Origin: a virus
Virus record (IMG/VR): IMGVR_UViG_3300046804_005798
Span: 1-64,000 of that record
Direction: 5' to 3' (one strand)
Length of the DNA stretch: 64,000 bases
Below, in pieces: positions 23,907 to 58,388 of this stretch. A program made the translations under genes and the position numbers. The notes beneath the pieces are model-generated. The model was not told the origin of the DNA. It saw only the letters and a list, made by a program, of their open reading frames with translations, and did not search any database. The stretch's first letter is position 1, and each line of letters starts with the position of its first letter.

Positions 23907-23949
23907 AAATACAACAACGGGTTAAGAAATGTAACAGGTTCTTAACACA

Positions 23950-24075
23950 AGTTCTTGCCGAAAAGGGACGAAACTCCTCACCGAGACTAGGCAAGTAAAA
24001 GATGTCTCTCATATCCTAGACTGAGGGTGTCTAGGAAATAAGTACCTCCACCATTTCCCTGATGGACTTACTTAC
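23950..24075 (+). ncRNA. PhotoRC-II-like structured psbA 5' UTR
   Basis: GAGAC/GTCTC, TCCTAGAC/GTCTAGGA and CCAT/ATGG stems with AAGTA/TACTT closing, as recalled for cyanophage psbA leaders. Confidence 0.7.
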
Positions 24076-24089
24076 TTTTAAACGTACAA

Positions 24090-26290
24090 ATGACTGCTAC
24101 ACTTTCACAACAAAAACAAACAAATTCCTGGGAACAATTCTGTAACTGGGTAACTTCAACCGATAATAGGTTGTATGTGGGATGGTTTGGAGTCCTTATG
24201 ATTCCTTGCCTACTTGCTGCTACAACTTGTTTCATCATCGCATTCATCGGTGCTCCCCCAGTGGACATTGATGGCATTCGTGAACCAGTTGCTGGATCTC
24301 TAATGTATGGAAATAACATCATCTCTGGTGCTGTTGTTCCAAGTTCTAACGCCATCGGCCTGCATTCGTAAAGGAGTGCCTTATACCAGAAATGGTATAA
24401 GCAAATCGGGTGAATTGCTGGAAACCTAACCCAGTGAAAGGATAAAAGTGTATAAATAGTAATATGGAAACCACTTCTATCCTAATGACTATCTACGAAC
24501 AGTTTATTGAGTATTGTAAAATTGAAAACTTTGATAGTCAGTACTATGAAAAACACCATATTGTTCCAAGACATTCTGGTGGTACTGATGATAAAGAAAA
24601 TCTAATTTACTTACCTCCACATATTCACACACTCGCACATTATTACCGTTGGTTGTCATTTCAAGAAATAGGTGACAAAGTTGCTTACGAAATGAGATGG
24701 AACCAAAATATGGAAGGTGTGAAACTTCGTTCTCAACTTGCTGTTGAAACTAATAAACAAAAGGGTAATACTTTTTGGAATAGTGAATGGCAAAGAGAGC
24801 AGGGACTAAAAGGTGGAACAAAAGGAGGTTCTGCTAATACTCAAAACCAGTTTATTGCTAGACAAAAAGTTGGTAAAACTTATGGAAAGCAAGTTGGTCT
24901 TTCAAGGCAAAAAAGTGATTTGGTAGAAATACTGAAACACTCCACATCTTGGAAACACAAAACTGGAAAAACTGTTACTCTTTTTCCACAAGAAAGTGTG
25001 ACTAAACTTTGTGAAGAACTCCAAAGTATTGAATACTTTGATATTCCAAACAAAGCACTTATAGGAAAACTTCTTCGTGGTGAAAAAAAACAACTTTATG
25101 GGTGGTCTTTTACTGGTATGGCAATCAGCAGCCAAGACACAGACGATACTTCTGTGTAAGGTTCATCGACTAGTCGGTTTCTCAAGCGTGAGATGTAATA
25201 CGACATTAGCGCCCGACACCCTCAATTTAGGGTGATGATATAGTCAGCACCATAAGGAAACTTATGGATTATGCGTTCTACCCCATCTGGGAAGCTGCTT
25301 CCCTAGATGAGTGGCTTTACAACGGTGGTCCTTTCCAACTCGTTGTCTTCCACTTCCTCATCGGCATCTACTGCTATATGGGTCGTGAATGGGAACTTTC
25401 TTACCGTCTAGGTATGCGTCCTTGGATTATGGTTGCTTACAGCGCACCTGTTGCTGCTGCATCTGCGGTATTCCTGGTCTATCCTTTCGGTCAAGGTTCT
25501 TTCTCTGATGCAATGCCTCTGGGTATCTCTGGTACGTTCAACTATATGCTTGTCTTCCAAGCAGAACACAACATTCTGATGCACCCCTTCCATATGCTTG
25601 GAGTTGCTGGTGTCTTCGGTGGTTCTCTGTTCAGTGCTATGCACGGTTCTCTGGTTACTTCCTCGCTGGTTCGTGAGACCACCGAGAATGAGTCCCAGAA
25701 CTATGGTTACAAGTTTGGTCAAGAAGAAGAGACCTACAACATCGTTGCTGCACACGGTTACTTTGGACGCCTTATTTTCCAATATGCTTCCTTCAATAAC
25801 TCCCGTTCGCTGCACTTCTTCCTTGCTGCTTGGCCTGTAGTTGGAATCTGGTTTGCTGCTCTTGGTGTAAGCACCATGGCATTCAACCTTAATGGTTTTA
25901 ACTTTAATCAATCACTTCTATCATCTGATGGTCGTGTGATTAATACCTGGGCTGACATTCTTAACCGAGCAAATCTTGGTTTTGAAGTAATGCACGAGCG
26001 TAGATTTGGGTATTGCGCTCTTTAAATCGGATGAATTGCTGGAAACCCCAAGTGGGCAATCAGCAGCCAAGTCCTAGATACATCTAGGAAAGGTTCAGAG
26101 ACTACCTGAGGAATAAAGTTTCCTTAATAACAGGCACGAGCGTCCGACACCAGAAATGGTGATGATATAGTCCAATCCTGGTAGTAATACCAGACAACCA
26201 AAGGAATAAAAGAATGCCCATAATTTTCCTTTGGACCTTGCATCTGTTGAAGCAACTCCTGTTGCCTTGACTGCACCGACCATCGGGTGA
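24090..26290 (+). CDS. psbA: Photosystem II D1, three exons: 24090-24365, 25276-26001, 26213-26290 (359 aa)
   Basis: Joined exons give continuous D1: ..NAIGLH|FYPIWEA.. and ..EVMHER|[10 protein letters not shown]..; 92+242+25 codons. Confidence 0.97.
24366..25275 (+). mobile_element. Group I intron 1 in psbA (910 nt, after His92) carrying an HNH ORF
   Basis: P1 GCAU|UC with GAGUGC gives U.G at the splice site; core GAATTGCTGGAAAC, AATCAGCAG, GGTTCATCGACTA, GATATAGTC; ends in G. Confidence 0.93.
24464..25159 (+). CDS. Intron-encoded HNH homing endonuclease (start may be ATG 24485)
   Basis: [31 protein letters not shown]; late promoter TATAAATA 24451-24458. Confidence 0.88.
   Translation: METTSILMTIYEQFIEYCKIENFDSQYYEKHHIVPRHSGGTDDKENLIYLPPHIHTLAHYYRWLSFQEIGDKVAYEMRWNQNMEGVKLRSQLAVETNKQKGNTFWNSEWQREQGLKGGTKGGSANTQNQFIARQKVGKTYGKQVGLSRQKSDLVEILKHSTSWKHKTGKTVTLFPQESVTKLCEELQSIEYFDIPNKALIGKLLRGEKKQLYGWSFTGMAISSQDTDDTSV
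26002..26212 (+). mobile_element. Group I intron 2 in psbA (211 nt, ORF-less, after Arg334)
   Basis: P1 GAGCGU with GCGCUC (U.G); core GAATTGCTGGAAAC, AATCAGCAG, GGTTCAGAGACTA, GATATAGTC; ends in G. Confidence 0.93.
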
Positions 26291-29974: not shown

Positions 29975-30300
29975 TGGGAAAACATTACTTACTTAACTTG
30001 TATGGATGCTCGTTCGTTCTTTTGGACGACGAGCGTTGTCTTATTGATTTATTAGAAAACGCAGCGGTTGCTAGTGGTGCCACTGTGGTTCAGACTATTT
30101 CAAAAAAGTTTGAACCACAAGGAGTTACTGTAATTTGTTTGCTTTCTGAAAGTCATATTAGTATTCATACTTGGCCAGAGGAAGGTAAAGCGGCAGTAGA
30201 TGTTTATACCTGTGGAGATTGTAATCCAAAGATTGGATGTGACATTATCATTCAACAGTTGTATGCGACCGATCATACATTGAGTTATATTGAGAGATAA
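29974..30300 (+). CDS. speD: Pyruvoyl-dependent S-adenosylmethionine decarboxylase family proenzyme
   Basis: FEPQGVT..LLSESHISIHTWPE..AAVDVYTCG. Confidence 0.92.
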   Translation: MGKHYLLNLYGCSFVLLDDERCLIDLLENAAVASGATVVQTISKKFEPQGVTVICLLSESHISIHTWPEEGKAAVDVYTCGDCNPKIGCDIIIQQLYATDHTLSYIER

Positions 30301-30302
30301 AC

Positions 30303-30355
30303 TGTAACAAATATTACAAAAGTGCTTGTCTATATAGTGTAACTAGAGGTATAAT
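30303..30355 (+). promoter_or_regulatory. NtcA-like box and sigma70 promoter
   Basis: TGTA-ACAAATAT-TACA (GTA-N8-TAC) 30303-30318; TTGTCT-18-TATAAT 30326-30355. Confidence 0.55.
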
Positions 30356-30365
30356 AATCCTCTAA

Positions 30366-30668
30366 CGTTCATCCTATGACTAAAGCACTTTTGCTTTTAG
30401 CATGGGTTCCTTTCCTCTTTGTTTCAGCGCCACAAGCATCTAGTATCCAACAGGTTGCTGTTTCTTGTGACACCGCGATGGAACTAATGGACATCGTTAA
30501 AAACGACGATGTAGTAAACCAAAAGATAGAGGACCGATTGTTATTAGAACTCCGAAAGGATTTCATAGTAAGGTGCTAAAACCTAATAGGACGGAAGTAA
30601 GCCGACGCGGAACGGATCGTTCATTCGCTATTCGCAAATAGCGAACGCAAACGCCGACTGAAGGAACG
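30366..30668 (+). ncRNA. Tandem glnA-type glutamine riboswitch aptamers (first has an expanded P2 loop)
   Basis: CGTTCAT-CCTAT...ATAGG-ACGGAAGTAAGCCGACGCGGAACG (30366-30614) and CGTTCA-TTCGCTATT-CGCA-AATAGCGAA-CGCAAACGCCGACTGAAGGAACG (30618-30668). Confidence 0.75.
30376..30579 (+). CDS. Small exported protein nested in riboswitch aptamer
   Basis: Signal-like N-terminus, two Cys, 67 aa. Confidence 0.65.
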   Translation: MTKALLLLAWVPFLFVSAPQASSIQQVAVSCDTAMELMDIVKNDDVVNQKIEDRLLLELRKDFIVRC

Positions 30669-30701
30669 CTCTTTAACCTAAAAAACTAAGGAGAAAACCT
30701 A

Positions 30702-30839
30702 ATGTCTAAAGTCGTATACAGAGGCGTAGAGTATGATACTCAAAAGCGTTTAGAGTATCAACAACAAATGATGCAACAACCTCAACAATACAACGAAACC
30801 TATCGTGGTGTTAAGTTTGTAAAGGAGGGGCACAAATGA
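30702..30839 (+). CDS. DUF4278-like small protein (45 aa)
   Basis: MSKVVYRGVEYD...TYRGVKF double YRGV motif; AAGGAG SD; downstream of Gln riboswitch. Confidence 0.8.
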   Translation: MSKVVYRGVEYDTQKRLEYQQQMMQQPQQYNETYRGVKFVKEGHK

Positions 30840-30937
30840 ATACTTACTTCGTTCGTTATCTTAAGAAAAAAGCGAAGAAGGAAAAACTCCTTCATAACGC
30901 ACAACTGAATATGGCAAAGCAACCTCAAGTTGCTTAA
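30836..30937 (+). CDS. Small basic protein (33 aa)
   Basis: ATGA overlap, AAGGAGG SD, MNTYFVRYLKKKAKKEKLLHNAQLNMAKQPQVA. Confidence 0.6.
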   Translation: MNTYFVRYLKKKAKKEKLLHNAQLNMAKQPQVA

Positions 30938-30943
30938 TAAATT

Positions 30944-30974
30944 AGAGAGGGACTTGACTCCCTCTCTTTTTTTA
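30944..30974 (+). terminator. Rho-independent terminator overlapping a sigma70-like promoter
   Basis: AGAGAGGGA...TCCCTCTCT + T run; TTGACT in the loop and TATAAT downstream. Confidence 0.8.
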
Positions 30975-31005
30975 TCTATAATTACCTTTGTGAGGGTTAA
31001 TCAAG

Positions 31006-31248
31006 ATGGATAAAGAAAAGCTTAAGTTAATCATCAGAAACCTTGAGTCTCTTGTCGATTGTCTTAAATCAGAAGTATATTCTGATGTAGATGCATATAA
31101 ACCAGATCTTCAGTATGAAGAAGTAGCACCTTATATTGATGATTACGATGAGGTGTTCTATGATGATGAGAGTGATGAACTAGCAGATTTAATGAAAGTA
31201 AATCAAAAATACAAACTTACAAACGATGATGATGGAGATGGACTGTGA
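31006..31248 (+). CDS. Acidic hypothetical protein
   Basis: MDKEKLKLIIRNLESLVDCLKSEVYSD. Confidence 0.75.
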   Translation: MDKEKLKLIIRNLESLVDCLKSEVYSDVDAYKPDLQYEEVAPYIDDYDEVFYDDESDELADLMKVNQKYKLTNDDDGDGL

Positions 31249-57715: not shown

Positions 57716-57997
57716 GCGAGTATGGTGGAATCGGTAGACACACCAGACTTATGAAAATTGAGCCTCATTTGGGAAACCTTGTGAGTGTAACTCCTCAAAT
57801 TCGGTGAAACCTGTAAAATGGCAATACCGAGCCAAGCATCGTAAGATGAAGGTGTAGAGACTAGACGGGGAGCACCTAAACCAAAAGGTATGGTGAAGGT
57901 ATAGTCCAGACCACAAACCGAAAGGGTAGTGAAAACTATAGTGGTACGAAAATCTGTTGAGCGTATGCTCGTGGGAGTTCAAGTCTCCCTACTCGCA
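57716..57997 (+). tRNA. trnL: tRNA-Leu(UAA), split by a group I intron (exons 57716-57750, 57949-57997)
   Basis: GCGAGTA/TACTCGC acceptor stem, spliced loop CT-TAA-AA, long variable arm, GTTCAAGTC T-loop. Confidence 0.92.
57751..57948 (+). mobile_element. Group I intron (198 nt) in tRNA-Leu anticodon
   Basis: P1 CUU|A..UUGAG; core AAATTCGGTGAAAC, GGCAATACCGAG, GTGTAGAGACTA, AAGGTATAGTCC; terminal G. Confidence 0.9.
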
Positions 57998-58315: not shown

Positions 58316-58388
58316 GCTGGTGTAACTCAATTGGTAGAGTAATTCTTTTGTAAAGAATAAGTTGCAGGATCGTGCCCTGTCACCAGCT
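58316..58388 (+). tRNA. trnT: tRNA-Thr(UGU) with atypical T-loop
   Basis: GCTGGTG/CACCAGC, ACTC/GAGT D-stem, ATTCT-TT TGT AA-AGAAT, T arm GCAGG-ATCGTGC-CCTGT; 73 nt. Confidence 0.85.

Follow-up and report, generated by a model that had tools for sequence, protein, structure and literature searches.

The DNA analysed here, called the window throughout, is a stretch of 64,000 nucleotides (nt) from a virus (IMG/VR record IMGVR_UViG_3300046804_005798, positions 1 to 64,000). It is part of a 72,883-base record of a T4-like cyanophage, and the closest named relatives of the stretch are Synechococcus myoviruses (Kyanoviridae). Between speD (AdoMet_dc, 6.8e-35), which ends at 30300, and a thymidylate-synthase-like gene at 31245 lies a short unit of RNA elements and small genes (Table 1). 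It contains two aptamers of the glnA type (Rfam family RF01739) in tandem. The second is compact. The first is split into two halves, and the loop of its stem P2 is occupied by a complete open reading frame (ORF), here called ORF-A, whose start codon lies partly within the stem itself.

A preliminary description of this stretch had placed the two aptamer halves about 208 nt apart at 30366-30614, a 67-codon ORF between them with its ATG inside the 5′ strand of P2, and a compact second aptamer at 30618-30668. The coordinates of the halves are all correct, the ORF is in the program-made ORF list, and the second aptamer is recovered by a local Rfam search. Read directly from the sequence, the linker AT is at 30371-72, CCTAT at 30373-77 and the nested ATG at 30376-78, and the P2 5′ strand ends with the first two bases, A and T, of the start codon. 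P2 in the window is a stem of six base pairs (bp), TCCTAT/ATAGGA, which spans 208 nt, and the strands of P1 are complementary at 30366-70 and 30610-14. The stop codon of ORF-A falls 7 nt ahead of the P2 3′ strand, and the 3′ half, in which ATAGG at 30586-90 is followed by the core ACGGAAGTAAGCCGACGCG at 30591-30609 and the P1 3′ strand GAACG at 30610-14, is non-coding in this phage. A GAT linker joins the split aptamer to aptamer 2, as it does in the compact tandem of phage S-CREM1. In aptamer 2, P1 pairs 30618-22 with 30664-68 and a 9-bp P2 pairs 30624-32 with 30637-45.

Table 1. Features of the riboswitch unit, in window coordinates.
Feature	Position	Strand	Description
GTA-N8-TAC motif	30304-30317	+	NtcA-box consensus; centre 55 nt before CGTTC
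Sigma-70-like promoter match	30326-30355	+	Candidate; TTGTCT-18-TATAAT, 10/12 matches
5′ half of aptamer 1	30366-30377	+	CGTTC, then A, then P2 5′ strand TCCTAT (30372-77)
P1 5′ strand	30366-30370	+	CGTTC, in 5′ half of aptamer 1
Local 5′ hairpin	30373-30406	+	Predicted; CCUAUG-A-CUAAAGC...GCUUUUAG-CAUGGG; competes with P2, pairs AUG
ORF-A, nested gene	30376-30579	+	67 amino acids (aa); program ORF list
3′ half of aptamer 1	30586-30614	+	P2 3′ strand ATAGGA (30586-91), conserved core, GAACG
Compact aptamer 2	30616-30672	+	RF01739, 33.1 bits, E 2.4e-5 (local search); gathering score 35
Anti-Shine-Dalgarno/Shine-Dalgarno (SD) hairpin	30669-30693	+	Predicted; CUCUUUA (30669-75) with UAAGGAG (30687-93); in minimum free energy (MFE) and constrained folds
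DUF4278-like (IF17-like) gene	30702-30839	+	Downstream gene; 45 aa, MSKVVYRGVEYD...
33-aa ORF	30836-30937	+	Putative, last of unit; overlaps stop of DUF4278-like gene; phrog_545, E 0.026 (weak)
Intrinsic-terminator-like hairpin	30944-30975	+	9 pairs, 5 G-C, loop 6, then TTTTTTT; end of unit

The split halves carry the junction and core letters of the Rfam consensus (AUCGUUCAU ... ACGGAAGUA ... GGAACG). With P2 left out they are identical, letter for letter, to compact aptamer 1 of S-CREM1, and they are one letter off compact aptamer 1 of DSL-LC02, which itself scores 35.6 bits against RF01739. A chance origin is excluded by this context, namely the identity with S-CREM1, the adjoining aptamer 2 and the 194 recurrences described below, rather than by the 12-mer CGTTCATCCTAT alone, which occurs once in the window and is matched at least once, at no more than one mismatch, in 22 of 100 shuffles. 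These observations support the conclusion that split aptamer 1 is a genuine glnA-type aptamer with a complete protein-coding gene in its P2 loop.

Related arrangements are found in other phages. At the corresponding place S-PM2 and S-CREM1 carry two compact tandem aptamers followed by a similar small gene, and the pair in S-CREM1 is annotated in its record as a glnA riboswitch (PMC9964418, excerpt). In DSL-LC02 and S-SRM01 the first aptamer is compact and the second is split by an annotated ORF of 50-55 codons, whose ATG is also within the P2 5′ strand. The window is therefore no isolated accident. In the model Prochlorococcus phages P-HM2 and P-SSM4 there are ORFs in both aptamers (PHM2_179 and 180, locus L287 690-1155; PSSM4_169.2 and 169.3, locus L288 691-1160), followed by a DUF4278-like gene (181 and 170, respectively). 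All of these are annotated just as hypothetical proteins, and the riboswitch is not annotated there. The marine first-aptamer ORF is present in 51 phage records, including P-HM1, P-HM2, MED4-213, P-RSM4, S-TIM4, P-SSM3, P-SSM4 and S-TIM5. A tblastn search of ORF-A against cultured phages gave no match, and no isolate of the window's exact class is known from that collection.

The nested ORF in the second aptamer of DSL-LC02 is here called ORF-B. In an IMG/VR search, relatives of ORF-A were encoded in 213 stretches and those of ORF-B in 251. From each, 80 loci were kept, and the pooled set came to 284 phage loci, in which aptamer halves were located by a regular-expression scan. The preliminary description had suggested looking in cyanophages for a 5′ half, an ATG, an ORF and a 3′ half in that order, and the scan found 194 distinct split aptamers of this form, together with 105 distinct compact ones, in a pool that is enriched for nested forms by the manner in which its loci were retrieved. 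All four architectures occur: the 153 distinct tandems in the pool are 51 compact-nested, 46 nested-nested, 36 nested-compact (as in the window) and 20 compact-compact. A sample independent of the ORFs was taken using the 16-base core of the second aptamer as the sole key, and gave at least 120 loci in 117 distinct contexts. Among the matches listed, 105 loci could be classified, of which 75 have one or more nested ORFs and 30 compact aptamers only; the other 12 of the 117 were truncated or unparsed.

By these counts, the nested arrangement is the common form in cyanobacterial viruses, well-studied ones among them. The unit, whose geometry is constant in all 194 split aptamers from cyanomyoviruses, whether first aptamer, second or both, is ancient and under selection. 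A search of the genomes of 185,579 species, of low sensitivity since it used a single peptide pattern, gave one match, on a 3.7-kb contig of a metagenome-assembled genome. At the sensitivity used, the nested protein family looks restricted to phages. The contig (L286, labelled Acetobacteraceae) has a riboswitch of the cyanophage type, its first aptamer compact and its second holding ORF-B, and probably represents phage DNA that ended up in a bacterial bin.

The position of the nested ORF relative to the aptamer is constant. Each of the 194 split aptamers has its first ATG at the top of the P2 5′ strand, 9-12 nt beyond the C of CGTTCA; a frame of 49-70 codons opens there and fills the P2 loop, which is 140-230 nt long. 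The stop codon is 16 to 4 nt ahead of the 3′ half in 68 of the 194 and within the 3′ half in 126, where it is the UAA of GGAAGUAAG in 15, the UGA of GACUGAAGG in 109 and elsewhere in 2. In the second-aptamer class the ORF runs into the 3′ half for its final residues (..DAKAD) and stop codon, as do the marine first-aptamer ORFs, which end in ..GRK. Compact aptamers have a P2 loop of 3-13 nt, which is their most variable part, on a stem of 3-9 bp; one of them combines the A-type stem TCCTAT/ATAGGA with an ORF-free loop. In some compact aptamers, for example at L001 1463-1503 and L002 1190-1230, a four-codon mini-ORF (ATG GGA CGN AAG TAA) runs from the P2 loop to the conserved GUAA and may be the remnant of a deleted nested gene, or chance. 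A derivation of compact aptamers from nested ones, by deletion of the ORF down to such a mini-ORF, was rejected, as the mini-ORF is seen in just 6 of 63 compact type-1 aptamers.

Absence of P2 covariation in homologues had been named in the preliminary description as evidence that would speak against a split aptamer, and covariation is present. In anchored counts over the 194 aptamers, 575 of the 582 cells at P2 positions 2-4 hold a standard pair, and each position shows several pair types; when the 3′ strands were redealt among aptamers (2000 shuffles), the mean was 333 and the maximum 380 of 582. Because relatedness could inflate this contrast, a partner-swap control was used, which keeps relatedness: within loci, the cognate 3′ strand is paired in 709 of 716 cells, compared to 326 of 716 with the 3′ strand of the other aptamer. 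Structure pairs were also counted in a MAFFT alignment of 62 diverse split aptamers, with slid and shuffled controls. Here, 99.1% of cells are paired, compared to 34.6-62.4% when slid; both sides have changed in 33 cells, compared to 11.6 in shuffles (33 was reached by 0 of 500); and the covariation score is 0.168 compared to 0.085. Two P2 pairs show CG, UA, UG, AU and GC types, with double-sided changes. This alignment has a gap column inside the P2 5′ strand that leads to a slight undercount of pairing, and the anchored counts are preferred. RNAalifold predicts the long-range P2 closing the ORF in both ORF classes. Taken together, the comparisons show that P2 pairs and covaries across the ORF.

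The aptamer halves have entropies of 0.00-0.15, compared to 0.59-1.06 at the third codon positions of the ORFs. In the window's class the mean for the 3′ half is 0.11, compared to 0.59 at third positions of ORF-A, and as this 3′ half is non-coding, its conservation is at the RNA level. Within ORF-A, codons 1-12, 35-46 and 53-62 show almost no synonymous variation (64 distinct sequences), and the ORF-bearing region folds better than shuffles, with z of -3.24. RNA-level constraints therefore exist inside ORF-A as well. The stretch of codons 1-12 coincides with the local 5′ hairpin of Table 1, which has a predicted energy of -13.5 kcal/mol in the nascent RNA, ahead of synthesis of the 3′ half. 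The 64 distinct A-type sequences retain this hairpin, one of whose pairs varies between A-U, G-U and G-C, and the bases of the P2 5′ strand and AUG are locally paired to a mean of 0.85 in the A-type, compared to 0.38-0.40 in the other ORF classes, which have no such hairpin. Codons 35-46 (ELMDIVKNDDVV) correspond to 30478-30513 and codons 53-62 to about 30532-30561, and a hairpin CAUCGU...ACGAUG is predicted there. These two stretches suggest a further RNA-level constraint inside the gene.

From the 194 nested aptamers come 177 distinct proteins; every frame is intact, and lengths differ by whole codons. The nested ORFs are recognized as genes by gene callers and in phage annotations, and relatives of ORF-A are found in at least 250 protein clusters. 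Entropies at first, second and third codon positions are 0.71/0.41/1.06 for ORF-B and 0.40/0.29/0.59 for ORF-A. All 177 proteins have at least two cysteines, mostly 34-37 residues apart (C31 and C67 in ORF-A, both invariant), and two cysteines are the sole invariant columns in a diverse alignment of 59 sequences. A comparison using hhalign of first-aptamer ORFs (70 distinct) with second-aptamer ORFs (105 distinct) gave a probability of 93.6% with E of 2.1e-7, cysteine being aligned to cysteine. The match is significant with these diverse profiles, and just suggestive with narrow alignments of A and B (E 0.028, probability 1.8%). On this evidence the nested ORFs are one family of small two-cysteine proteins.

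By eye, ORF-A has a hydrophobic, signal-peptide-like N terminus, and its AlphaFold model, which is of low confidence (predicted local distance difference test score, pLDDT, of 63.4), has helices at 31-43 and 49-64. The layout of the nested proteins is read as a hydrophobic N terminus followed by a two-helix unit bracketed by cysteines. No curated protein family fits it among Pfam, PHROGs, PDB profiles and Atlas look-alikes (scores of at most 0.81): Pfam gave nothing meaningful for the nested proteins, and PHROGs gave no match for ORF-A and matched ORF-B to phrog_504, a family of unknown function, with E of 0.0028. PDB profile matches to protein A B-domains contained no passing stretch and were judged to be helical-repeat noise. 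Some relatives of ORF-A (P0011, P0013, P0021 and P0067) are labelled 'site-specific recombinase XerC' in one source. This looks like an annotation error, and cannot be right because a protein of 68 aa is too small.

The GTA-N8-TAC motif upstream of the split aptamer recurs in 148 of 157 distinct regions upstream of first aptamers, compared to a mean of 3.9 and a maximum of 10 in shuffles. The consensus is as applied to cyanophages elsewhere (PMC3037559, excerpt), and NtcA may act at this box. Metatranscriptome contigs from three runs, in three studies, all end at 30355, which is 11 nt before P1, with adapter-like letters beyond this point in one. They cover ORF-A and both aptamers, reaching 30695, 30840 and 30812, and hint at a defined RNA 5′ end at about 30355 and at one RNA covering the unit. 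From the centre of the NtcA-type box to this end is about 44 nt, a spacing that differs from the textbook value. RNA cover is absent at 30254-30334 and beyond 30955, and no inference is drawn from either stretch; loose contig ends in two runs belong to relatives with the second aptamer also split. An inverted repeat lies around the TATAAT-like hexamer, between the NtcA-type box and P1 (30344-30364; TAGAGG/CCTCTA in the window). Its arms elsewhere are AGGTC/GACCT, GGGG/CCCC or TGTGTT/AACACA, and change together.

Beyond the second aptamer, the downstream gene has a strong SD. The region leading to this gene starts with CUCUUUA in 81 of 169 distinct cases, and the SD is predicted to be paired in 105 of 169. 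The downstream protein in the window matches phrog_5049 clearly (1e-10) and PF14105 with 19.1 bits (E 0.0017), for which the cut-off is 25.3. The other riboswitch loci have the same gene at this place, and its N-terminal V.YRG..Y motif is common to them.

It had been expected that standard covariance searches would miss the split aptamer, and this is what happens. Even with E allowed up to 10, aptamer 1 of the window is not matched by RF01739, which puts it below the 35-bit gathering threshold, and there is no Rfam Glutamine match in P-HM2 and P-SSM4 (E up to 1) or in locus L058, in all of which both aptamers are split. The evident reason is the length of the insertion. Compact aptamers obtain scores of 28.9-35.6 bits, and the one in locus L002 reaches the threshold with 35.6. 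Glutamine binding by glnA-type RNAs was reportedly defined by Ames and Breaker in 2011, and the tertiary fold of the glutamine aptamer includes an E-loop and a pseudoknot. In the excerpted text of McCown et al. 2017 (PMC5473149) just two glutamine aptamers, in two cyanophage genomes, are reported, and the word 'riboswitch' is absent from the excerpted text of a comparative cyanomyovirus genome paper (PMC3037559). No earlier description of an ORF inside a glnA aptamer was found in the literature searched, the scope of which excluded the Ames and Breaker paper and all supplements. It is concluded that the glutamine riboswitch with a gene in P2 is a real, conserved and expressed architectural variant, which is apparently undescribed, and that its regulatory logic, as read from sequence comparison, is plausible.

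The unit resembles RF01739 as described in excerpts of PMC6212724 and PMC2864571 in its P1 (CGUUC/GAACG), junction letters, P2 hairpin, tandem arrangement, downstream DUF4278-like/IF17-like (gifB-type) gene and cyanobacterial setting. It differs in that the P2 loop is a conserved gene, with its start codon in P2 and its stop often in the core. The Downstream-peptide or glutamine-II RNA (RF01704) of marine picocyanobacteria is associated with ORFs of 17-100 aa, many of them DUF4278 (excerpts of PMC2864571 and PMC6212724). Its peptide gene is downstream of a compact aptamer, whereas here the downstream DUF4278-like gene is accompanied by an unrelated two-cysteine gene inside the aptamer. Leader-peptide attenuation and the upstream-ORF switches of the Mycobacterium tuberculosis B12 and Mbox riboswitches are similar in that translation of a short ORF and regulatory RNA structure interact. 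In the B12 and Mbox switches, as far as excerpts describe them, the ORF comes after the aptamer, in the expression platform, whereas here it is inside the aptamer, encodes a conserved protein and would compete with the ligand-binding fold. Group I introns that carry an ORF in one of their peripheral loops are likewise structured RNAs whose long-range helices close around a complete ORF, but they are self-splicing ribozymes and not ligand sensors. Their loop ORFs encode mobility enzymes, whereas the proteins here are of 49-70 aa and the start codon is in a sensor stem adjacent to the core.

The best explanation, to which we give a probability of roughly 0.6, is that the unit is the tandem glutamine (glnA-type) riboswitch operon of a freshwater T4-like cyanophage, in which translation of the nested gene and folding of the aptamer are mutually exclusive states. 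An initiating ribosome (30S) on the nested AUG would cover the whole 12-nt 5′ half, and a ribosome ending the ORF would cover the P2 3′ strand or, in other phages, the core itself. Since the ribosome would occupy aptamer strands, translation and aptamer folding should not be able to coexist on one molecule. The P1/P2 fold, when stabilized by glutamine, would in turn bury the nested AUG, which lacks an SD. At high glutamine, then, the nested protein would be silenced, both aptamers would be folded and the SD of the DUF4278/IF17-like gene would be freed; at low glutamine the nested protein would be on and the downstream IF17-like protein off. The upstream NtcA-type box would add transcriptional nitrogen control. 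Freeing of the downstream SD by high glutamine is suggested by analogy with the cyanobacterial gifB riboswitch, in which glutamine relieves SD pairing and switches on translation of a DUF4278 gene (PMC6212724, excerpt). The proposal of the preliminary description, that glutamine would hide the nested AUG, that translation would disrupt the aptamer and that the inner and downstream genes would be reciprocally controlled, fits the invariant geometry.

Several observations weigh against this explanation. P1 never varies (all 62 diverse split aptamers have the same P1, and P1 of the Rfam family consensus is likewise without covariation), and therefore has no support from covariation. In the window phage the MFE is -98.8 kcal/mol, compared to -91.8 kcal/mol with P1 and P2 of aptamer 1 enforced, so that the aptamer fold is 7 kcal/mol higher; pair probabilities are about 0.05 for P2 and 0.0003 for P1, in a model that ignores tertiary and ligand energy. 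The MFE fold contains a 7-bp pairing of UCCUCUA in the leader with UAGAGGA inside ORF-A, which was taken as chance because its ORF side is not conserved (the consensus is GAAGAC). In the window's clade the AUG is paired in the local hairpin as well as in P2, which makes the sign of control on ORF-A uncertain. In the second-aptamer versions of DSL-LC02, S-SRM01, P-HM2 and P-SSM4 the ORF stop is about 20-30 nt before the downstream SD, and the downstream gene could therefore be positively coupled to the nested one, not reciprocal to it. Like ORF-A, the nested ORFs have no SD, and their translation is predicted from sequence. Many of the 194 split aptamers are close relatives. Finally, RNA libraries may contain DNA, and the contigs do not prove a single transcript.

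A simpler explanation would be that the split aptamers sense glutamine for the downstream DUF4278-like gene only, with a permissive P2 loop in which the ORF sits uncoupled. This would agree with the variability of the P2 loop among compact aptamers, with the A-type stem that is found without an ORF, and with the occurrence of all four compact/nested combinations, which implies that either form is viable. We consider it unlikely, given that it does not lead one to expect the ATG to keep a distance of 9-12 nt from P1 throughout the 194 aptamers, the ORF always to end inside the 3′ half or at most 16 nt ahead of it, or most loci to retain the ORF. It is also hard to picture independence when a ribosome physically occupies the stem strands.

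It is quite improbable that the split aptamers have lost glutamine binding, and that their halves are kept as an initiation region, as coding and stop sequence, or as recombination boundaries of small-gene cassettes. The coding 3′ halves of the second-aptamer and marine first-aptamer classes would suit such a role, and the mixture of nested and compact forms among related phages, with the same ORF family in both positions, fits exchange via the repeated aptamer. However, the 3′ half of the window's class is nearly invariant despite being non-coding, covariation of P2 across the ORF is required by neither coding nor recombination, and the core shares its letters with compact aptamers whose score reaches the Rfam threshold (L002). 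The remaining explanation, in which the insert extends P2 as structured RNA and is open in frame only by coincidence, draws on the near absence of synonymous variation in three stretches of ORF-A and on the fold z value; it is very improbable in view of the 194 intact frames out of 194 with length changes in whole codons, the two cysteines invariant across 59 diverse sequences, the codon-position pattern typical of coding, the profile-profile homology between divergent ORF classes, and the calling of the ORFs by gene callers and annotators.

Riboswitch aptamers are usually seen as compact non-coding domains upstream of the genes that they control, and here a conserved and widespread aptamer encloses a gene. 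With the start codon in a stem and the stop often in the core, the same nucleotides serve translation and ligand sensing, which must therefore interact. The operon with exclusive states offers a directly testable model of competition between metabolite and ribosome. It may be a new class of switch, in which the two compete for the same RNA with opposite outputs for the nested two-cysteine and downstream IF17-like proteins, although this we hold only tentatively, at somewhat short of even odds. If the model is true, P-HM2 and P-SSM4, with ORFs in both aptamers, would make three small proteins in a glutamine-graded cascade, and cyanophages would use such a switch to tune host nitrogen metabolism during infection, which would link phage infection to host glutamine and NtcA nitrogen signalling. 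Glutamine riboswitches would then be common rather than rare in cyanophages, since the usual searches cannot see split ones. Phage riboswitch counts such as the two in two genomes (PMC5473149, excerpt) appear to be underestimates because of model length limits, and covariance-model scans should permit gene-sized insertions in hairpin loops. The unit also provides a regulatory context for three families of 'hypothetical' genes, namely 169.2, 169.3 and 170 of P-SSM4 and 179-181 of P-HM2.

Some minor features were also observed. An antisense ORF of 65 codons (30369-30566, minus strand) overlaps nearly all of ORF-A, and is probably incidental. Elsewhere in the window, Rfam finds two group I introns, a PhotoRC-II RNA and a tRNA (25952-26194, 57741-57930, 23943-24049 and 58316-58388). 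In P-SSM4, a manA RNA match of 184 bits is located just upstream of the riboswitch unit (L288 416-601). It overlaps the coding sequence PSSM4_169.1 (471-644), which may therefore be a miscalled ORF.

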